Of a DNA stretch of 59,925 bases, positions 50,473-59,898 are shown in pieces (position 1 is the stretch's first letter; each line of letters starts with the position of its first letter). Made by a program: the position numbers and the translations under genes. Source of the DNA: Candidatus Aquivivens invisus (GTDB taxonomy: Bacteria > Omnitrophota > Gorgyraeia > Aquiviventales > Aquiviventaceae); the NCBI GenBank assembly GCA_001804415.1, contig MHGA01000041.1, positions 1-59,925 of the forward strand. The letters run 5' to 3'. The notes beneath the pieces are model-generated. The model ran no database searches. It had not been told where the DNA came from and saw only the letters and a list, made by a program, of their open reading frames with translations.

Positions 50473-50991
50473 CTAGTCAGGACGCCTCCGGCTTTCCAGA
50501 TGCTTCCGGTAGGCCTCGGTGATCTGCTGTGCGTCGCGGGTCGACAGGATCGCCTTGCCGGAGCTGGCGCGGGGGTGAGGGCGGCGCATGCTCGCCGGCC
50601 GGGCCTGCGCGTAGAAGGCCTGCACGGACACGACGCGGGCGCCGAAGGCGCGGGCGTTATTGAAGACTTCGTTGTCGTTCGACACCACGACGCATCGGCT
50701 GCCGGCGCTCTGGGATTCGATCAAGCGCAAAATCCGTTCGTCCGCTTCTTGCGGCCTCTGCGTGAAGCACACCGTCACCCTCTCGTCCTGCGGCGCCGGT
50801 GAGCCGAACGCGTGGACGTCCCTCCCGTCAAACACCACATAGAGACGCCCGATGTCCCCGCGCCGCGCCCGATACTCCCGGCAGAGGCGCACCAGCGCCT
50901 CGCGCGCCGATTGCAAGCTGCGATCCAGGTGCCGTGCCAGCTCCGGCACCGCATGGATCACGTTATAGCCGTCAAGGATGAGGGTGGTCAT
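50473..50991 (-). CDS. NYN domain (YacP/Rae1-like) ribonuclease
   Basis: ILDGYNVIH, VVFDG, ADE.I and VVSND motifs. Confidence 0.85.
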   Translation of the reverse strand: MTTLILDGYNVIHAVPELARHLDRSLQSAREALVRLCREYRARRGDIGRLYVVFDGRDVHAFGSPAPQDERVTVCFTQRPQEADERILRLIESQSAGSRCVVVSNDNEVFNNARAFGARVVSVQAFYAQARPASMRRPHPRASSGKAILSTRDAQQITEAYRKHLESRRRPD

Positions 50992-51036
50992 GTGCGCGGC
51001 CGCCGCCTCTCATCCGTGGAAGGCCCCGAACGGCTC

Positions 51037-51177
51037 TCAGATGACCGGAGGCTGCGCGGGCGGTTCGACGCTCTGCTGTTTCTTTCTCTCCAGCTTGCGC
51101 AGCCGTTTCGCTTCTTGCTTTTGTTTCCTTTCCAAATCCCTCTTCCGCTTTTCAAACTGGTAGTTCACATAGGCCAT
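51037..51177 (-). CDS. 46-aa basic small protein (below the ORF-track cutoff)
   Basis: AGGAGG RBS; MAYVNYQFEKRKRDLERKQKQEAKRLRKLERKKQQSVEPPAQPPVI. Confidence 0.7.
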   Translation of the reverse strand: MAYVNYQFEKRKRDLERKQKQEAKRLRKLERKKQQSVEPPAQPPVI

Positions 51178-51240
51178 GGGGCCTCCTTTCTATGACGATC
51201 GCCTCTCGTGCCACTGGCTGTAGCCTGTCCCCGCAATGCC

Positions 51241-51281
51241 CATGATTGTACTCTGCCCGTCCCTCGCGGTCTACCGCAGGC
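51241..51281 (-). repeat. Direct repeat P1, containing a promoter-like TAGACC-17 bp-TACAAT
   Basis: 35/41 identical to 54179-54219. Confidence 0.8.
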
Positions 51282-51294
51282 AGCGCCGAACGTC

Positions 51295-52314
51295 TCAGCG
51301 TTTCGATACCAGGCGATAGACGACGGGCCGCGTCGTCGACTTCTCGACGACCCGTTTGCCCACGAGCGGGCGCAGGACTCGATACACCTGCACCCGTTCG
51401 ACCCCCAGCAAGCGCTGCAGCTCTTCGACCGTCATGCCCTGCCGTCCGCGTAGCTCAAGCAGGAGCCGCTCCTGCTGCCGGGTCAGCGAGAGGCCCTTGG
51501 CTGAAGGCGGGAGTGCGAGCCGTTCAATCCGTTGGGATGTGCGGCCCAGCGTGTCCAGGACTGCCAGCGCGACGTACTCCAGCCACGAAGTCAGATTCTC
51601 ATTTTCTTTGCGAACCCGTTGAAGGGCGTGATAGTAGCCCTCATGATCTTCTTGAAAATACTGGTCCACGGCAAAGAGGTGTTGCGTATCAAAACCTCGG
51701 TGGTAGAGCACCCAGGTTGCCAGCGCCCGAGCCACTCGGCCATTGCCATCTCGGAATGGGTGCAGCCTCGCAATCTCGTAGTGGGCACAGGCGGAGGCAA
51801 TAATCGGGTGTGTAGAGCTGGCGGTCATATCAAGCCATTGCGCTAACGCCTCAGTACCTGGAGCGGCCGCTCCGGGTCCTGGCGGCTCGTAGACCACCCG
51901 ACCGGCTGACATGATGACATTGCGCGATCGCTTGAACGCACCCACCTGGGCGGGCGGCAGCAGACCGGTTGTGACGAGCCGGTGGAGCCGCAAGATCCCC
52001 TCCACCGTAATCCGCTTCCCTTGGGGCTGGCGCGCAATCCAACGCAGCACCGCGAAATAATTGAGGACCTCCTGCTTGGCTCGATCGGTCGCGGATACCT
52101 GCTTGGCTCCTGCCAACGCTTCAACCTCAGGGAGGGTCAGCGGGTTGCCTTCGATGGCGGTGGAAAAGTGGGCCCGCCGTACCAGCGCGTCTAACCGAAT
52201 GCTCTCCAGCCAGGCCACCTGGACCGGGGCGGCCTGAATCTTTGTCCGGAGCGCTTCGGCCTCGCTGATTCGCGCGAGTAGTACCTCTGTGATGGTGTAC
52301 GGCGGCTGATACAT
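51295..52314 (-). CDS. Fic domain protein (class II, autoinhibitory motif) with C-terminal HTH
   Basis: HPFRDGNGRVAR catalytic motif; STAIEGN inhibitory motif. Confidence 0.92.
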   Translation of the reverse strand: MYQPPYTITEVLLARISEAEALRTKIQAAPVQVAWLESIRLDALVRRAHFSTAIEGNPLTLPEVEALAGAKQVSATDRAKQEVLNYFAVLRWIARQPQGKRITVEGILRLHRLVTTGLLPPAQVGAFKRSRNVIMSAGRVVYEPPGPGAAAPGTEALAQWLDMTASSTHPIIASACAHYEIARLHPFRDGNGRVARALATWVLYHRGFDTQHLFAVDQYFQEDHEGYYHALQRVRKENENLTSWLEYVALAVLDTLGRTSQRIERLALPPSAKGLSLTRQQERLLLELRGRQGMTVEELQRLLGVERVQVYRVLRPLVGKRVVEKSTTRPVVYRLVSKR

Positions 52315-52407
52315 CTTGTGTATCCTTTGTGTATCACCAGTGTAGCCGAACTAACCGAGGGACGCAACAAGAAACGGGTGAGCGGGCCGGGGAGCAAGGC
52401 CGAAGGC

Positions 52408-52493
52408 CCCGGATCAGTCCGCCTGATGCGCCTGCCGGGCACATCAGCGTGGGGCGCCAGTTGGACAAGCACCGATTCCTCAGAAATTGGTCC
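52408..52493. repeat. Boundary repeat A1
   Basis: 52453-52493 is 39/41 identical to 56293-56333; also shares cccggatcagtcc..ctgatgcgc. Confidence 0.85.
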
Positions 52494-52523
52494 TGTGCCG
52501 TACGCGGCGGAGGCCCCTCAGCG

Positions 52524-53387
52524 CTAGGAATCAACCTTGAGGCGATGGTATCTTGAGTCGACGATCTCAGTAAACTTGCCTCGAAAAGCGGCCGGCAGAC
52601 GGTTGGCCTCGATCAGCTGCTTCATGCGACTGAGCTTGCCGACGAATTTCTGATAGCGGACTTTCTCCGGGATTTCCAAGGTGTCCGCGAATGCGTCGAC
52701 ATCATTCCGTGTGAGGTGGTTCCGTTTCCCATGCAGCGTCAGCGCAGAGTCTTCCTCGCCCGGGATGACCAGCTTGGTGCACACCAGATCGTACGCCGGA
52801 GCGAGACGAACCCCATCACCTTGGTACGTGATCGAATAGTTTTGAAAATGCGCATCGCCATTGCCGATCAAAAAGTTCAGGACGACACGCTCAAAGAACA
52901 GCTGTACGTCCAGCCCTGGCACGGCAGAAATGTCTTTCAGCTTCTTGCCGATCTCTTCCAGAGACCCTGCGTACTTATCCTTCTTCTCGAGGATTTGGTA
53001 GAAATTCTCTTGGTGGATCTTTTCCTTCCCAACCCGATCAAAGCGCTTGACCACATAGGCCAGGGTCTTGTCTGTTAAGGGTAAGAGGCAATGCGGTGGC
53101 ACCTCGATCTCCAGCTCCATCGCGATATCCATGCAACAGTTCTCGTTTTCCGGGACATGGGGATACTGTTGGATCTGCGGCTTCAGAATGTACTCCCCGC
53201 CTTCCACGACCGGAACCAGTTCAGCTTGAGATTTATTGAGTTGGAGCGATAATTTCGGTTGGACGCCGGAAATGGACATCTTCCCCACCATGGCTTGTGC
53301 GCGCAGCGGGATGTCCATGAGGGACAACGGAATGGTAGGCTCTACATCGAGATTGAACATGGCCTTGACCGATGTTACGTCAACCAT
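52524..53387 (-). CDS. HipA-family kinase, C-terminal core (HipT-like)
   Basis: SISGVQPK loop, YILKP, RFDR, GNGDAH.QN and LAPAYD motifs. Confidence 0.9.
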   Translation of the reverse strand: MVDVTSVKAMFNLDVEPTIPLSLMDIPLRAQAMVGKMSISGVQPKLSLQLNKSQAELVPVVEGGEYILKPQIQQYPHVPENENCCMDIAMELEIEVPPHCLLPLTDKTLAYVVKRFDRVGKEKIHQENFYQILEKKDKYAGSLEEIGKKLKDISAVPGLDVQLFFERVVLNFLIGNGDAHFQNYSITYQGDGVRLAPAYDLVCTKLVIPGEEDSALTLHGKRNHLTRNDVDAFADTLEIPEKVRYQKFVGKLSRMKQLIEANRLPAAFRGKFTEIVDSRYHRLKVDS

Positions 53388-53400
53388 CGTGCACCCGCCC

Positions 53401-53730
53401 TTACTCTTCAGCTTTATGCACGGTCACCGCACCAATCGTATCTGCCGTGGTCGCCAGGAGAATGCCGAACGCATCCTGCGCATCGATCTTGGCGGTAGCG
53501 CTCACAATCGCCAGGTACCATCCCTCAGGCAAGAGACCCCGAAAGAAGCTGAACAGCTCTCGCGATTCGTAGGGCTCCTCGCGCAATGGCAGCGACATCG
53601 AGATGGGCGCTCCCGTGCGCAGGTACGCGGGATCGTACTGGAACTGGTACCCCGTCGCCGTCTCTGATAAGTAGCCGGCAACCTGATCCTTGTACTTAAC
53701 CTTGGCTCTTCGAAACGACTCTGGGCTCAT
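53401..53730 (-). CDS. HipA N-terminal subdomain protein (HipS-like)
   Basis: AG.L.E...GY.FQY...Y, IS.SLP, FF.GLLPEGW and D.IGAV motifs. Confidence 0.88.
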   Translation of the reverse strand: MSPESFRRAKVKYKDQVAGYLSETATGYQFQYDPAYLRTGAPISMSLPLREEPYESRELFSFFRGLLPEGWYLAIVSATAKIDAQDAFGILLATTADTIGAVTVHKAEE

Positions 53731-53923
53731 GGTTCGACACAATCTCCAGATGATGCCCGAGGAATTTCAAGACCTGGTTCACCTTATCGAGGCGGACACT
53801 GGGCTTGCCCTGTTCGAGGTCGCGAATAAACCGCAAGCCGACCCCCACTCGTTTTGAAAATTCCACTTGAGTGAGTCCGGATCGCTTGCGCAGTTCCTTG
53901 ATCTTCTTGCTGAGTGGAGTCAT
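53696..53923 (-). CDS. XRE HTH regulator (HipB/y4mF-like)
   Basis: RK..GLTQ.E.S...GVGLRFIRDLEQGK.S.R.DKVNQVL. Confidence 0.9.
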   Translation of the reverse strand: MTPLSKKIKELRKRSGLTQVEFSKRVGVGLRFIRDLEQGKPSVRLDKVNQVLKFLGHHLEIVSNHEPRVVSKSQG

Positions 53924-53934
53924 GCTATCAATTC

Positions 53935-54066
53935 TATATCATATCAGGTATAATTTCAAGCCTATAATACATTAACTATACCCTTAATGATATAACAATA
54001 TTAGTACTATACCCTATAAGGTATACATTTTGTGCATTGAAATGTAAATAGGCTCTAAAGGGTATA
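53935..54066. promoter_or_regulatory. Four TATACC-N6-GGTATA-type operators upstream of hipBST
   Basis: 53935-53952, 53977-53994, 54008-54025 (perfect) and 54049-54066 in an AT-rich promoter region. Confidence 0.75.
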
Positions 54067-54178
54067 ATTATACGCTTGGTGAGCTGGTGTCTGTGACGTC
54101 CAACGCCAGACTGGAGCGCCACCAGAGCCCTCTCGTGTGGAGCCCGGACATGGCGGAGGCTGCCGAGCAGCCGCCCCA

Positions 54179-54219
54179 CATGATCTTCCTCTCCCCATCC
54201 CTCGTGGTCTACCGCAGGC
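54179..54219 (-). repeat. Direct repeat P2 (decayed -10)
   Basis: 35/41 identical to 51241-51281. Confidence 0.8.
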
Positions 54220-54235
54220 GCCGTCGGTTCAACCT

Positions 54236-55102
54236 TCAAGCAAACAGCGTGGCGACCTGCGGACGAAGCTCCTCGATCACCGTCGTGTAGGGTGGGAGCT
54301 TCGGTACCAGCGGCCCGAGCCACTGCGTCCACGTCTGCTCCACGCCTGCCAGCATGGTCTCGGGAAAGAAGCTCTCTGGCCCTGTAAATGTCACGTCACG
54401 GATCGCGCACTTTTTGCGCAAGAACATGGAAAATTCCGACAGGTCGAGGCGATCTCGATAGGTGCCGAGGATCCTCCAGAGGTCGTAGTAGTCCCGCGCG
54501 CGGGAGCGCGCCCAGCCCCGACGTTCAAGGGCGCGCTGATGCTGCAGGATGGCCCGCAGCTTCTCCGCCACGATCTCCTCCAGCGGGTAGACCGGCACCT
54601 GGGCATTCAGCGGTTCGCCGTAGTCATGGAGCACAGCGCGCCGCAGCGGCGGTTTCAGCAACGGTTCATCCACTGCGATCTCGACCATCACGTGCGCCTG
54701 AGGCTGTCGGTGCCACGGGAACCGCGCCCGGATGTCGAAAGCCTCCTGGCCGCCCGGATGCGGCTCGCGCTCGACGTGCCGCTCGCAGACAATGTCGACA
54801 GGTACGTAGGGATCGAGGAGCTTGACCGCTTGGGTACAGGCCCCCCGCATCGCAGACTCCATCGCAGCACCCGTCGGGACGGATTCCACGGCGGTAAAGT
54901 CCAGATCCTCGGAAAAGCGGTAGTCGCCGAAGTAGCATTTCTTGAGGGCGGTGCCACCCTTGAACACCAGCGTGTCGCGCAGGGCCTCCACCTGGGTGAC
55001 ACCGGCCAGCACCCACGAGAGGAGATAATCGCGTTCGAGCACCTCCCACGGCAGGCCCAGCCGCGTACGGGCTTCCTGCAGGCGAGTGCGCAGCGGCTTC
55101 AT
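54236..55102 (-). CDS. AbiEii/AbiGii nucleotidyltransferase toxin (type IV TA)
   Basis: ERDY.LSW, FKGGTALKK, RFSEDLDF, AEKLRA and RARDYYDL motifs. Confidence 0.93.
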   Translation of the reverse strand: MKPLRTRLQEARTRLGLPWEVLERDYLLSWVLAGVTQVEALRDTLVFKGGTALKKCYFGDYRFSEDLDFTAVESVPTGAAMESAMRGACTQAVKLLDPYVPVDIVCERHVEREPHPGGQEAFDIRARFPWHRQPQAHVMVEIAVDEPLLKPPLRRAVLHDYGEPLNAQVPVYPLEEIVAEKLRAILQHQRALERRGWARSRARDYYDLWRILGTYRDRLDLSEFSMFLRKKCAIRDVTFTGPESFFPETMLAGVEQTWTQWLGPLVPKLPPYTTVIEELRPQVATLFA

Positions 55103-55962
55103 CCCACCGTCCCCGGGAGATTCACCTGGATCATCCAGCGGGCGTCATATGATCCGTGGCGTGGGCTGCTTGGATCGAGCACGCGGTAACCCTTCATGGG
55201 GACCGCCCCCAACGGCTCCAACCGGTCGGATGCGATCCCCTGCCGCTCCAAGATCCAGCCCAGGCGCTTGGCTGTGGCGGCGTCCAGCATGAGGGCATAG
55301 CGAATGATCCGCTCCACGTCGAGCTTGGGAGCCCGGACTTCAAAGCCATGGAGCACCTCGGCGAAGTCACCGCAGTATCGCGGCGCCATCAGCCCATCCA
55401 GGAGGGTCCGCTCCGGATCGGTGATCGCGATCCTGGACTCCTGCACCCAGACCTCCTCGATTCCGAAGAACCGCTCCGGCTTGACCTGCACGAATTGATA
55501 GGTCGCAGCACCCACTGGATAGCTTGCCCCTCCCTGCTTGCCTCCGGCAACCGCAGGCAGGTCGGTGCGGACCGCCTTCGCGCCACGTAGGCGGGGCACC
55601 GAGCGCGCGGAGGTCAGCACGAACACCCGCCGCGGCACCTGGTCCGTCAGCCCATGATGGCTCATCGCCGACCAGTGGCTGATCGCCGCCGGCTCAACCA
55701 GCGCCATCGCAATCTCGAACTCGTGCAGTGGGATCGTCCCTGGCACCGCGCCCGAGAGCACGTAGAGCCCCTTCTTCAACCGGACAATCCATCCAGATCG
55801 GGCGAGGTGATGCAGCGCCTCGCGAAAGTAGCCAGACGACAGGCCCACCGATGGAGCGACCCTGCGCGCTGCCTCAGCGGTGAAGACGCGTAGCCCTTCC
55901 GCCGACAGCTTCCTGACAAGTTCAACCCCTGATGTTGTATGGGTGAGCTGTTCTATTGTCAT
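55099..55962 (-). CDS. AbiEi antitoxin / transcriptional regulator (type IV TA)
   Basis: wHTH W..RL.KGLY, IS.WSA...HGLT.Q.P, TDPERT..D and KRLG.I motifs. Confidence 0.9.
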   Translation of the reverse strand: MTIEQLTHTTSGVELVRKLSAEGLRVFTAEAARRVAPSVGLSSGYFREALHHLARSGWIVRLKKGLYVLSGAVPGTIPLHEFEIAMALVEPAAISHWSAMSHHGLTDQVPRRVFVLTSARSVPRLRGAKAVRTDLPAVAGGKQGGASYPVGAATYQFVQVKPERFFGIEEVWVQESRIAITDPERTLLDGLMAPRYCGDFAEVLHGFEVRAPKLDVERIIRYALMLDAATAKRLGWILERQGIASDRLEPLGAVPMKGYRVLDPSSPRHGSYDARWMIQVNLPGTVG

Positions 55963-56053
55963 GGCTTGTCCTTGATATAAAGTATACGTCAATAATTTGT
56001 TACTGTCAAACAATAGCCTGTAATAATATAGCTATGTAAGATTGGCCACGCAT

Positions 56054-56118: not shown

Positions 56119-56221
56119 TATGTATTGTGATCTAAAACTGGGGGTGCGTCAACCTCTGTTTCGGCCTCACCCCAAGTATGCCTGAATTCTAGCCTGAACT
56201 TTAATGTTCTGAAAGGGTTCG

Positions 56222-56333
56222 CAAATATGCCAGCCCGGATCAGTCCCACCTGATGCGCGGCGCGCATCAACGCTGGTGGGACTTCGCGAGGCGGCGCCAG
56301 TTGGGCAAGCGCCGATTCCTCAGAAATTGGTCC
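56222..56333. repeat. Boundary repeat A2 with an inserted palindrome
   Basis: caaatatgccagcccggatcag..ggcgccagttgggcaagcgccgattcctcagaaattggtcc; insert agtcccacc..ggtgggact. Confidence 0.85.
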
Positions 56334-56371: not shown

Positions 56372-56956
56372 TCAGAACTCAGCGCAACCCACAGTGGGGA
56401 TCGGCTCCCTCGAGGGCTGGCAGTGGGCATCCGACGCTTCCAACAAGGAGGATCCGTCTTGGCCCGTCACCGACCGGTCCTCCAGCAGGCAATCGTCCGT
56501 CGGGGCGTGGGCAAAGGTGATGCCGTTCCAGGGGTAGAGTTGCTGCGTGCGTTTCCCCGCCACGTAGTCCGGCTCGTAGTCGGACCGCTCGAGCACGATG
56601 GTGGGGACTCCCCGTACCCGTACAAAATCCGTATTGGGCGTGCTGGACCCGCCGGCGAACAGGACCACCGACTTCCCCCTTTTCCACTGGATGGCTCGTG
56701 CCTGGCTGCCGTGTGATCCGGCTGCGAAGGTGAACACCGCTTCCTGAGACCCGTCCCCATCCAGATCGAGCAGTGAGGCCGCGCACATACTGTTGAAACC
56801 GCCCTCTTCTGCGATTGTTCGCTCGATGACACCCCGGACCTGCGACCTGTTCGGTGCGGATGCGGCCTGAACCCCTGTGGGGTGCAGTAGGAAGCCTAGC
56901 ATTCCCAGCGTGGCGACTATTCCCCCAATTTTCATTGACGATAGGTTTCCTGCCAT
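56372..56956 (-). CDS. Exported hypothetical protein with a DxDGDG Ca-binding-like motif
   Basis: Signal peptide; LDLDGDGSQE motif. Confidence 0.55.
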   Translation of the reverse strand: MAGNLSSMKIGGIVATLGMLGFLLHPTGVQAASAPNRSQVRGVIERTIAEEGGFNSMCAASLLDLDGDGSQEAVFTFAAGSHGSQARAIQWKRGKSVVLFAGGSSTPNTDFVRVRGVPTIVLERSDYEPDYVAGKRTQQLYPWNGITFAHAPTDDCLLEDRSVTGQDGSSLLEASDAHCQPSREPIPTVGCAEF

Positions 56957-56999: not shown

Positions 57000-57296
57000 T
57001 CATTCTCCCACGTGATGCCAATCTTCTTCTTTCACACCCCGCAGGAAGGCGGCGATCTCCCTTATTGCGCCGTGTTGGTCTGCCCACTTGATATGTTCTT
57101 CAAGTCGACCCATCTTGAGCATCGCTGGCGTCTCATACCATGCAGCTGGAATCAACGGCGCTGGCAGCTCCCAGCCAAGACCGATTCGTTTACGATCCGG
57201 CAAGGATTCCCACAGCTGATTCCAGAGTGTCGGCTTAGGGCATGCACGCTCGTTTGCACGGCAGTAAGCAATGAGGCTATCAACCGTCTCGCTCAT
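57000..57296 (-). CDS. Hypothetical protein
   Basis: Intact 98-aa ORF; CP.P..W..LW..LP, P.PLI..AW and RL..HI.WA patterns look family-like. Confidence 0.7.
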   Translation of the reverse strand: MSETVDSLIAYCRANERACPKPTLWNQLWESLPDRKRIGLGWELPAPLIPAAWYETPAMLKMGRLEEHIKWADQHGAIREIAAFLRGVKEEDWHHVGE

Positions 57297-57314: not shown

Positions 57315-57345
57315 CCAAATATACCAGCCCAGATCAGCTAGGCGG
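57315..57345 (-). repeat. Boundary repeat A3 with extended -10 TGGTATATT
   Basis: 28/31 identical to 59862-59892. Confidence 0.8.
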
Positions 57346-57397
57346 GCCGACGTAGGAGGTCTCCGATTTTCCCCTGCGCTTCCCTCAACGTGTCCCT

Positions 57398-57420
57398 TCG
57401 GAACCCGGTACGGGTTTTCC
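57398..57420. repeat. 23-bp hairpin direct repeat B1
   Basis: tcggaacccggtacgggttttcc, identical at 59624-59646. Confidence 0.9.
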
Positions 57421-57434
57421 CCGGCTCCGGGTTG

Positions 57435-58778
57435 TCAACCAGAATGGCTGAGCTGGCGCTTCAGGAACTGCTCAATGATCGGCTGGACGACCCGCTCTTT
57501 GTGAAGCTCGAAATAATCGAACAACACCGTCAACTCAGAAACCGCTGCGTGAACCAAATCAACGAGCTTGGACTCGATATCCCCAAGGCGCTCTCGAACG
57601 CTGGTTTCCATTTCGTTCTCGACGCACACGCGGCGCTCGAGGCTGTCAAACCCCGCTGCTCGCTCCGGATGCGCGGCGGTCAGGACGCGCCCGCGCAGCC
57701 CGGTGTATCGGATCCGTACGACGACGTGCTCGTTCTCCTGGATTCCCAACGCCCCATACAGCCGGCGAATCCTCAAGAGCGTCTCAGCCGTCCGGACGAT
57801 GCGCGTATCCAGGAAAATCTTGCCTTCCGATCTGGTATCCTCAAACAGCGTTTTCAGCAGGAAAAACGCCAGGTCGCTTCTGAGCGCCCAGTAATCATAC
57901 TGCGACTTGTCATCCACGAGGACGCTGGCGCGGATGCCATCCTGATAGGCCTTCGGCTCAAACTCCGGTCGACTCATGACCACCCCAATCGGCCAGCCAA
58001 ACGCACGGATCTGCGTCTTCTCCATCGCTTGCCGCAGTTCCTGCTGTCTGACCCGGAGAGTCTCTCCGGTAGCGCGTCGCCAATAATCTTGCTGTGCATT
58101 GACCACTTTGTCTGGACAATACGCCGTGACCTCCATGAGGCATTTGTCCAGTTGGTTCGTCTTGGCCACCTGCACGGCTGCGCGGCGCTCCTGCTCGACC
58201 CAGGTATTCAGCTCCGCGTAGTCTTCGGCGACCTTCTGTTCCCCCGTCCTGGCCTTGCGGGACGGCCGCAGGATGATATCGAAGTCGCAATTGGCCGCCT
58301 TGGCGAACTTCCGAAGATAGTCCAGGGTGGGTTTTTCACGCCCGCTCTCGATGCCGGAGACAAACTGCTGGCTGCAGCCCAAGGCGCCGGCCAGCGCCTC
58401 CTGGGACAAGTTTGCTTCCTCCCGGCAGGACCGAAGCCTGGCCAATACATCGTTGGTGAACGGGTCCGGCTCGCGCGGTGCTTCCTGTCGCACGCGCACG
58501 CCGGCTTCGCGCAATTCTCGGAGATGGCGCTCATACGTCGCTCGCCAAAACGCCGCCTGATCCTTCGTCCATTCATCCTTGCTGATTTCACGTTGGATCG
58601 CACGGAATCGCCGGCAGAAAGCCAGCGGCGTGATGAGCGCGAAGACCTCATCAGGATCCTTGGTCCTGGCGAGCAGCTTGCCAGCCACCCGCGCAAACCT
58701 CGGGTTGCGGTCATCGACCAGGATGGCCTTGATGGTCTCGAACGGGAGCCGCAGATCCCAATACCAGTTGGTAGTCAT
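57435..58778 (-). CDS. Three-part protein: N-terminal helical domain, XRE HTH, uncharacterised C-terminal domain
   Basis: ATG at 58778 overlaps the toxin stop (ATGA); central REEANLSQEALA.ALGCSQQFVS.IESG...PTL HTH. Confidence 0.75.
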   Translation of the reverse strand: MTTNWYWDLRLPFETIKAILVDDRNPRFARVAGKLLARTKDPDEVFALITPLAFCRRFRAIQREISKDEWTKDQAAFWRATYERHLRELREAGVRVRQEAPREPDPFTNDVLARLRSCREEANLSQEALAGALGCSQQFVSGIESGREKPTLDYLRKFAKAANCDFDIILRPSRKARTGEQKVAEDYAELNTWVEQERRAAVQVAKTNQLDKCLMEVTAYCPDKVVNAQQDYWRRATGETLRVRQQELRQAMEKTQIRAFGWPIGVVMSRPEFEPKAYQDGIRASVLVDDKSQYDYWALRSDLAFFLLKTLFEDTRSEGKIFLDTRIVRTAETLLRIRRLYGALGIQENEHVVVRIRYTGLRGRVLTAAHPERAAGFDSLERRVCVENEMETSVRERLGDIESKLVDLVHAAVSELTVLFDYFELHKERVVQPIIEQFLKRQLSHSG

Positions 58779-59470
58779 CGCGATACGTAGACTCGGTTGA
58801 GGCGATCGTAGATCTGATCCTCGAGGTGGCGAAGAATCCGTTTGGTGTCGCAGCCCGGTGCGACATCCAGCAGCGCAAACGCCGTATCCTGGCGCGTCAT
58901 CGCCTGCAGCCAGCGCGCCAGCCTGGCATAGTCCTCTCGGCCGAAATGCGCCGAGAACCACTCATGCAACGGGGCATGATGGACCGACAGATACCAGAGA
59001 TCAAACATGTCCTTGGCTTCCTGCCGACCCCCGGATAGCTCCTGCCCCGTAGATAGCGACTTGCTGCGCCACCCGATCACCGCGCGCAGCTTGCGCAGAT
59101 AAATGTCGTCAAGCGAGGCGATCCCATCCGGCCCGACCGGATGCAGCAAGCGGTCAACATCTTCGATCACGTCGACCTTGAGCAGATCCTTCGCGGTCAC
59201 CTGGAAATTATAGAAGGCCACTCCGGCCTGGCCCGACTTGCGCTGCTCCGAGATCAGCTTGGCGGAGAATCCTGTGGTTGCCGTGATTCGCTTGGCCAGC
59301 GTTCGATGAAGCGCCTTGGTCCACCGCTGGGTAAAGAAGTCCAGATCCTCCGAATCACGATGCCGGTAGCGCAGAGCTAACGCCGTTCCTCCAACCAGAT
59401 AGACCTTGCTGACGGAGGATACGACAGCTCGCAGGATCTGTTCCTGAGCCTTACGGAGTGCGTTCTTCAT
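58775..59470 (-). CDS. AbiEii/AbiGii-like nucleotidyltransferase
   Basis: YLVGGTALAL...HRDSEDLDFF, K..AV..R and KD.FDL motifs. Confidence 0.85.
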   Translation of the reverse strand: MKNALRKAQEQILRAVVSSVSKVYLVGGTALALRYRHRDSEDLDFFTQRWTKALHRTLAKRITATTGFSAKLISEQRKSGQAGVAFYNFQVTAKDLLKVDVIEDVDRLLHPVGPDGIASLDDIYLRKLRAVIGWRSKSLSTGQELSGGRQEAKDMFDLWYLSVHHAPLHEWFSAHFGREDYARLARWLQAMTRQDTAFALLDVAPGCDTKRILRHLEDQIYDRLNRVYVSR

Positions 59471-59475
59471 ATGAG

Positions 59476-59533
59476 ACTAGCTATAGCTAGTAAACAAGAA
59501 ATAATATATCATAATACACAAGCTATAGCTAGT
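59476..59533. promoter_or_regulatory. Two palindromic operators (ACTAGCTATAGCTAGT) flanking an extended -10
   Basis: Perfect 16-bp palindrome at 59476-59491; 15/16 copy at 59518-59533; TGATATATT between them on the minus strand. Confidence 0.7.
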
Positions 59534-59600
59534 TGTTTTAGAACAGCGTATTTCAGAAATTCCGGTGACGATACTTATTCAATTCAGAGCAACCGTTTTT

Positions 59601-59834
59601 TCATGAACGCGAAACCCGACCCGTCGGAACCCGGTACGGGTTTTCCGATTGCAATTGGGCATCGAGATTGGGGGGCCACGCCGCGCCGAGGGGAACACTT
59701 GTCGCCTCGGAGGAACGGCGTGGTCCGTCGACTCGTTCGACCGCCAGGACTGGCTGGCTGCTGAGCGCGAGGACCACCAGGGTGAGGAGCAGAATAACAC
59801 GCACGTTCACGTTCTTCTTCCTTCCAAGGAGCAT
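59601..59834 (-). CDS. Short ORF with a signal peptide, probably a truncated gene
   Basis: VRVILLLTLVVLALSSQPVLA; runs through repeat B2. Confidence 0.3.
   Translation of the reverse strand: MLLGRKKNVNVRVILLLTLVVLALSSQPVLAVERVDGPRRSSEATSVPLGAAWPPNLDAQLQSENPYRVPTGRVSRS
59624..59646. repeat. 23-bp hairpin direct repeat B2
   Basis: Identical to 57398-57420. Confidence 0.9.
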
Positions 59835-59861: not shown

Positions 59862-59898
59862 CCAAATGTGCCAGCCCAGACCAGCTAGGCGGCGCCAG
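59862..59898 (-). repeat. Boundary repeat A4
   Basis: ccaaatgtgccagcccagaccagctaggcggcgccag links the A3 and A2 sequences. Confidence 0.8.

Follow-up and report, generated by a model that had tools for sequence, protein, structure and literature searches.

What would a sensor domain be doing on the antitoxin of a nucleotidyltransferase toxin? The question is raised by a two-gene locus on a 59,925-nucleotide stretch of DNA (hereafter the window) from the 1.42 Mb genome of Candidatus Aquivivens invisus, phylum Omnitrophota (contig MHGA01000041.1, positions 1 to 59,925). The first gene encodes a predicted toxin, a 231-amino-acid nucleotidyltransferase of the AbiEii/DUF1814 family (58775..59470). 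It is followed, also on the minus strand, by a gene for a 447-amino-acid partner, counted from its ATG (57435..58778), which we predict to be antitoxin, repressor and sensor in one. The two overlap at an ATGA stop/start (58775..58778), suggesting translational coupling; of 39 homologous loci, 27 keep the 4-nt overlap and 5 have one of 1 nt. The partner consists of an all-helical domain (residues 1-98; 58485..58778), an XRE helix-turn-helix (HTH; residues 105-170; 58269..58466; HTH_3, 51 bits) and a START-like domain of ~260 residues (residues 186-447; 57438..58223) that is common to many defence effectors and is the predicted sensor. From the sequence alone, the original prediction had proposed that the pair is a new defence system in which the partner releases the enzyme on infection. 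The features it described (toxin-first order, ATGA coupling, two palindromes and flanking repeats) all lay at the positions first noted, and the motifs WYWD, FGWPIG, YDYWAL, LFED and YTGLRGR.L were all found in the partner translation.

The enzyme matched the Pfam AbiEii family (PF08843) at 55 bits against a cut-off of 22.5. Its nearest solved relatives were the H. pylori structures 4o8s (E 2.9e-9) and 4ok0 (E 6e-9), of a protein we take to be JHP933, and the structure of MenT1 was a weak match (E 0.45). The conserved residues are G27-G28, R38, S40, D42, D44, K127 and K153-D154-x-x-D157; S40, D44, K127 and D157 are invariant in 40 of 40 aligned relatives, and D42 and D154 are present in at least 90%. 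Compared with the DUF1814 motif definitions of PMC3985639, motifs I-IV are intact. S40 occupies the Ser/Thr phosphoacceptor position two residues ahead of the first catalytic Asp, which is T39 in MenT1, S78 in MenT3 and T65 in AbiEii; this residue is widespread across DUF1814 and so is not diagnostic of MenAT systems (PMC11375011; bioRxiv 10.64898/2026.01.19.700257). MenT and AbiEii enzymes add nucleotides to tRNA and block translation (same two sources); in MenAT-type (type VII) systems the additions are to the 3'-CCA, and a bound antitoxin leads the toxin to auto-phosphorylation. By analogy the enzyme is likely a tRNA-blocking toxin.

The partner matched only XRE HTH families, over residues 113-168, in Pfam, PADLOC and NCBIfam. 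No AbiEi model from these three collections matched it at E≤0.1, while the AbiEi encoded at 55102-55962 in the same window matched strongly in Pfam and PADLOC. The fold of the partner HTH aligned with that of an XRE protein at Z 12.1 (root-mean-square deviation (rmsd) 2.6 over 70 residues), and the partner showed no similarity to the canonical AbiE pair, which lies separately at 54236-55962. These results ruled out AbiEi as the identity of the partner, in agreement with the original prediction. The helical domain had no family match in Pfam or the Atlas. DUF6922 was absent among the 25 families listed in a Pfam search of this domain, and a direct profile comparison, using only five DUF6922 sequences, gave a probability of 0.3% and E 0.18. 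Fold searches with the whole protein were filled by HTH matches and say little on the fold of the helical domain itself.

Is the joining of these parts genuine? We found 46 other fused relatives at 47-87% identity, 45 of them aligned over at least 97% of the length. Within the taxonomic family of the window the partner is present in 5 of 35 genomes including this one, always in the long form, and one of the five (G025) is broken by a 5' truncation and a stop in the linker. For the three partner domains, the ratios of nonsynonymous to synonymous substitution rates (dN/dS) in six pairs were 0.05-0.12, 0.06-0.14 and 0.11-0.18, the last for the START-like domain and all with dS partly near saturation, indicating purifying selection on all three. 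The partner gene is covered in full by one contig (57384-59308) of a sequencing run that may be the source, and the two-gene junction is crossed by a contig of a different run (58460-59790) with no differences. Together, the fused relatives, the purifying selection, the family genomes and these contigs ruled out an assembly or read-through artefact, and the fusion stood as a conserved feature of the homologues.

The partner can be viewed as two joined parts, a 171-amino-acid helical-plus-XRE protein and the C-terminal domain, and the first part also occurs alone. A profile of residues 1-175 matched 73 of 301 genomes of the phylum at E≤1e-15. In 60 of the 301, including this one, both the helical domain and the HTH were covered (E≤1e-37); the 13 left aside had HTH-only or split matches. 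Among the 300 other genomes, 59 carry a short, unfused form, all in open frames of ≤291 amino acids (E≤1e-37). Of 30 distinct short-form loci, 28 have the same enzyme immediately upstream and the other two begin at a contig edge; the C-terminal domain is missing from all 30 within the flank examined. A profile search gave 442 short forms, some perhaps HTH-only matches, and a word search with residues 1-105 gave none. The family PF24250, listed for some short forms, failed to appear in a local Pfam scan. In the literature searched, which covered few subscription papers, we found no earlier description of this toxin-first pair of enzyme and helical-XRE protein. In the enzyme tree with midpoint rooting, the 14 fused loci fall on one side of a single branch (100/100), nested among unfused loci; in the partner tree the fused forms are not one group, and two changes are needed, with weak support. 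Judged from these trees, one gain of the C-terminal domain in one lineage is the likelier history, and a later loss in three unfused loci is less likely.

Structure prediction placed the helical domain on the enzyme. An ESMFold2 complex of partner residues 1-100 with the enzyme scored 0.81, and the best of three controls scored 0.00. Runs agreed in at least 97% of contacts, with a predicted local distance difference test (pLDDT) score of at least 85 for the partner. Among solved complexes 116 of 157 attain the mark used for this score, as do 2 of 215 mismatched pairs, a calibration that is rough with the alignments used. The predicted interface places enzyme residues 178-189 and 220-231 against partner residues 42-51 and 72-87, so that the helical domain is predicted to bind the C-terminal helices of the enzyme. 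We found no solved complex resembling this contact. A parallel is offered by MenA1-MenT1 and MenA3-MenT3 of Mycobacterium tuberculosis, whose toxins belong to the same enzyme superfamily with a conserved phosphoacceptor and are bound by an unrelated small helical antitoxin (PMC11375011), much as the model predicts for the helical domain. However, we found no sequence link between the MenA antitoxins and the partner; the MenAT contact is at the phosphoacceptor loop, whereas the predicted contact is on the C-terminal helices, away from S40; and MenA proteins have no START-like sensor domain.

Upstream of the operon lie two likely operators: palindrome 1 (59476..59491, strandless), a perfect 16-bp palindrome ending 5 bp ahead of the start codon, and palindrome 2 (59518..59533, strandless), which is self-complementary at 14 of 16 positions and lies 42 bp from the first. 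These were the only two matches in the window, compared with 0 in 100 shuffles, and the two best sites in the genome (scores 21.0 and 20.3, next best 11.7). Related pairs of 16-bp palindromes occur upstream in most loci. The weaker palindrome exceeded the 99th percentile of shuffles in 27 of 40 loci, an optimistic figure since these very regions served to train the matrix. Of the 14 fused loci, 13 have the two palindromes 42, 52 or 63 bp apart; of the 26 unfused loci, 12 have them 30-32 bp apart. Such distances correspond to whole helical turns, three to six. The palindromes border or cover TTGAC boxes and start codons, a placement consistent with autorepression by an XRE dimer, and we consider it likely that such a dimer represses the operon at the two palindromes. 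We detected no sigma-70 promoter consensus in the window; TTGAC is found beside the operators in many relatives. In a group of loci (L002, L003, L005, L023-L025, L028, L030) the upstream region has a TTGAC box and, after it, the second of the two palindromes, which overlaps the start region. The mRNAs of those loci have no obvious ribosome-binding site and are possibly leaderless under operator control.

In several of these respects the locus resembles AbiE of Streptococcus agalactiae, an abortive-infection system that is bicistronic, has DUF1814 motifs I-IV, carries T65 at the position of S40 and is autoregulated at repeated operator sites, where conserved palindromes are found here (PMC3985639; bioRxiv 10.64898/2026.01.19.700257). 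In AbiE, though, the regulator gene comes first, whereas here, as in the 28 of 30 unfused loci, the enzyme does, and the AbiE partner is the winged-HTH protein AbiEi (COG5340/COG4861) rather than a helical, XRE HTH and START-like protein.

What, then, is the C-terminal domain? At a threshold of E≤1e-3, a profile of 25 sequences drew 1,781 representatives from 1.84 billion sequences. Of the best 150 representatives, 146 have the domain at the C-terminal end, and 54, fragments included, have little or nothing ahead of it. We scanned 90 proteins with Pfam (88 of the best 150 with N-terminal extensions, plus two earlier matches). The partner domains were TIR (21), RelA_SpoT (15), AlbA_2 (3), ParA (3; P0125, P0130, P0135), kinase (2), and HipA_C, HipA_N, SIR2, GGDEF and DUF4325 (one each); 41 of the 90 had no Pfam match. 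A further motif, by our own reading rather than by Pfam, is present in 18 of the 150 representatives and is one we take to be DrHyd-like. The original suggestion that this region resembles modules joined to effectors of the Schlafen, TIR and SIR2 types was thus borne out, and the effector list drawn up for it comprises TIR, RelA, AlbA_2 (Schlafen), HipA, kinase, ParA and SIR2. The domain is found in many phyla and one archaeon (70 loci), and none of 94 pattern matches in viral contigs was a relative.

The domain also meets this enzyme superfamily a second time. In P0084 and P0189 it is fused behind a MenT-like enzyme, and in L177 (3851-6582) an AbiEi_2 gene is followed by a nucleotidyltransferase, MenT-like by motif reading, fused to the START-like domain. 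Within this enzyme superfamily, then, the domain has been gained separately, by the toxin in one lineage and by the partner in another. In all nine stand-alone START-like loci inspected (L007, L038, L046, L050, L065, L067, L068, L172, L181) the gene lies directly behind DrHyd-like or AlbA genes; one of them, L007 (1495-2860), is in a family relative that has no fused pair (G002) and pairs a split Schlafen AlbA_2 gene with the stand-alone gene. Elsewhere the domain is carried on a probable antitoxin, behind a HEPN gene or fused to HipA_N (L127:5100-6612, P0087, P0052). In four Acidobacteriota loci (L133, L134, L145 and L146 (5776-7945)) a short helical peptide is fused to the domain; a P-loop ATPase gene is next in three of the four, with a weak nSTAND1 match in L134.

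The domain was modelled well (pLDDT 88, predicted template modelling score (pTM) 0.89). After a long helix (138-158) come strands 166-174 and 205-212 and a short one at 180-182 (model numbering). Near-invariant polar residues (E216, D295, E313, D314, T325, R326, R329, E332 and R364, conserved in 87-100% of up to 150 representatives) lie on and around the long helix. The domain had no sequence match in the PDB below E 0.8, and its matches in the Atlas were clusters without names (0.95-0.96) and one AlbA_2 cluster (0.84).

These properties recall a computational prediction of START domain-based systems by Li, Burroughs and Aravind (bioRxiv 10.64898/2026.10.19.760177), who described a new START variant with two extra C-terminal strands, first found in TIR-ParA systems. 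Its partners, fused or operonic, are TIR, DrHyd, AbiEii, Tox-RelA, Schlafen, HipA, STY kinase and HTH, and the systems are predicted to act in defence by sensing membrane change or lipid head-groups. We found the same partner set on our domain, including ParA in a TIR-ParA operon (L182, where a TIR_2 gene overlaps a ParA-type gene fused to the domain); our model also has strands after the long helix, and the conserved residues are strongly polar, where the preprint predicts sensing of lipid head-groups. From the partner list and the TIR-ParA arrangement, the C-terminal domain is very probably this START variant. The original description of a new defence system consequently did not stand as worded, the sensor class having been predicted in the 2026 preprint with AbiEii and HTH among its partners. 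The preprint text mentions neither an antitoxin-repressor that bears the sensor and follows AbiEii nor an ancestral pair without the fusion, though its figures or supplements may show them. The new element at this locus is that the predicted sensor is borne by the antitoxin-repressor, whose unfused ancestor is still common. In the literature searched we found no experimental study of the START-like domain.

We propose that the partner binds the enzyme and represses the operon, and that the START-like domain senses an infection-linked small molecule and unleashes the enzyme, a reading to which we give about an even chance. Under this model, the helical domain would hold the AbiEii-family enzyme and the XRE HTH would repress at the two palindromes. 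The START-like domain, grafted on later via a flexible linker, would respond to the small molecule and thereby free or activate the enzyme, which, by analogy, would tail tRNA 3' ends and halt translation. Docking at the enzyme C-terminus would put the START-like domain approximately where the direct fusions (L177, P0084, P0189) place it. A sensor role is likely, judging from the position of the domain behind unrelated effectors and from the 2026 preprint. The near-invariant polar residues and low dN/dS are more in keeping with a conserved ligand than with a phage protein that varies. There are precedents for such gating. CapRel is said to have a swappable C-terminal sensor, on the effector chain, that gates a translation-blocking effector. 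Prokaryotic Schlafens provide experimental precedent for a swappable C-terminal sensor gating a tRNA-targeting effector, although there the sensor is on the effector chain, is variable and recognises a phage protein, whereas the domain here is conserved and sits on the partner protein (PMC13056530).

Several observations weigh against this proposal. The unfused pair is far commoner than the fused one and so works without a sensor. The predicted interface is distant from the active site and excludes the catalytic residues and S40, so inhibition would not follow from binding alone. The linker (171-182) has pLDDT <50 and the full-length model a pTM of 0.56, giving no confident placing of the START-like domain relative to the rest. 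The fold match is weak: the best (Z 5.8, VIA; rmsd 4.1, 128 aligned) is to S-adenosylmethionine decarboxylase (AdoMetDC), not START, with PYR1 at Z 5.3 (rmsd 4.0, 114 aligned), and by the fold tool's own caveat a Z under 8 may reflect merely a common arrangement. About 20 of 50 fold-match rows are START/SRPBCC proteins, 11 of them so titled and the others presumably so by our own assignment, with alignments chiefly over model residues ~24-163; Foldseek found nothing for the domain model at E≤0.001. PADLOC models failed to match the domain, with 1 of 25 members at E 0.02. Nor does the low dN/dS hint at an arms race with a phage protein. Finally, neighbours of the fused operon differ in most relatives; some fused loci lie beside toxin-antitoxin, restriction-type or mobile genes (L021, L023, L024, L034, L035, L072), and several copies are among housekeeping genes rather than in defence islands (L073, L028; L075 downstream).

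The alternative that survives best is an ordinary addiction or dormancy module in which the START-like domain is an extra clamp or stabiliser on the toxin and senses no infection. Like other toxin-antitoxin modules, the unfused pair has a wide and patchy distribution, and the window itself holds a cluster of such modules. The nine stand-alone genes behind DrHyd-like or AlbA genes suit an inhibitor as well as a sensor, and the domain also occurs with the HEPN-associated partner of L127 and with HipA_N in P0052. However, most of its partners are effectors familiar from defence (NAD-degrading, RNase, kinase or alarmone-type), some carriers are in or beside restriction-modification loci (L123, L152, L153), and a single protein inhibitor seems unlikely to suit so many unrelated folds. 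On balance we regard the clamp as possible and rather improbable. Less probable again is that the domain controls DNA binding and not the enzyme, with ligand lifting repression at the palindromes and more toxin being made. Regulators commonly combine an HTH with a ligand-binding domain after it; the operators are conserved, lie over the promoter or start region and are spaced by whole helical turns. Yet elsewhere the domain is fused to enzymes that have no DNA-binding part, and with a shared transcript and translational coupling the antitoxin would rise along with the toxin. That the C-terminal domain is itself an enzyme making or breaking a small molecule, as its near-invariant polar residues and the AdoMetDC and S-adenosylmethionine lyases among its top fold matches might suggest, we consider quite unlikely, since the Z values of those matches are low (4.9-5.8), every intact locus inspected pairs the domain with an effector gene or an effector domain, and the preprint treats it as ligand-binding (bioRxiv 10.64898/2026.10.19.760177).

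The surroundings of the operon are rich in other modules and repeats. Scans with family models showed that a toxin-antitoxin gene cluster fills the last 10 kb of the window, including an island at 50473-56013 with NYN_YacP, a Fic-winged HTH gene (SoFic-like), an HTH/HipA_N/HipA_C trio and the canonical AbiEi-AbiEii pair. Between the modules lie open reading frames at 57000-57296 (98 amino acids) and 56372-56956 (194 amino acids, likely with a signal peptide), neither with a Pfam match above cut-off. In the fused locus L021 a close Fic homologue comes directly after the operon. Flanking the operon here are two copies of a 34-bp dispersed element with a small hairpin, both on the plus strand (downstream 57387..57420, upstream 59613..59646). 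They are identical at 30 of 34 positions and share a 23-bp exact core, at 57398 and 59624, present in only two copies in this genome. The element had 21 matches in 12 of 35 family genomes, compared with 2 for a reversed control; 8 of the copies are in G026. Across loci L190-L208, many copies edge toxin-antitoxin or defence modules (TIR plus caspase, Fic, HipA, HerA, DUF4143), a Panacea pair in G026 is bracketed by two, and others lie by housekeeping genes. Beside the other fused loci searched it occurs only once, downstream in G011. Being dispersed in the family in this way, the flanking repeats were ruled out as part of the system. The element may mark module borders and could be a recombination site for module shuffling. 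A 31-bp repeat is nested outside the 34-bp pair (57315-57345 and 59862-59892, with a weaker copy at 56221-56251); it is found near the same operon elsewhere (L024:3031, L025:187), and part of it adjoins the 34-bp element in L206. Two further sets of direct repeats, 51241-51281/54179-54219 (41 bp, 85%) and 52453-52497/56293-56337 (45 bp, 93%), are interleaved among the Fic, HipA and AbiE modules.

Taken further, our proposal suggests that through the domain one and the same conserved polar signal of infection is received by TIR, RelA, Schlafen, HipA, kinase and SIR2 effectors, and that grafting it onto an antitoxin in one Omnitrophota lineage turned an addiction module into a signal-gated anti-phage system; we offer this broader idea tentatively and hold it to be doubtful. 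About a fifth of the phylum genomes sampled carry the toxin-first pair, whose antitoxin domain belongs to no known family. Because the 171-residue "before" and the 447-residue "after" forms are both extant, the grafting step is directly testable. A sensor common to many unrelated immune effectors points to a shared infection cue, and this locus offers a compact way to find it, since growth arrest, tRNA tailing and promoter repression are simple read-outs and the unfused pair is a natural control that lacks the sensor. If true, it would show a toxin-antitoxin pair becoming a defence system by domain gain on the antitoxin.

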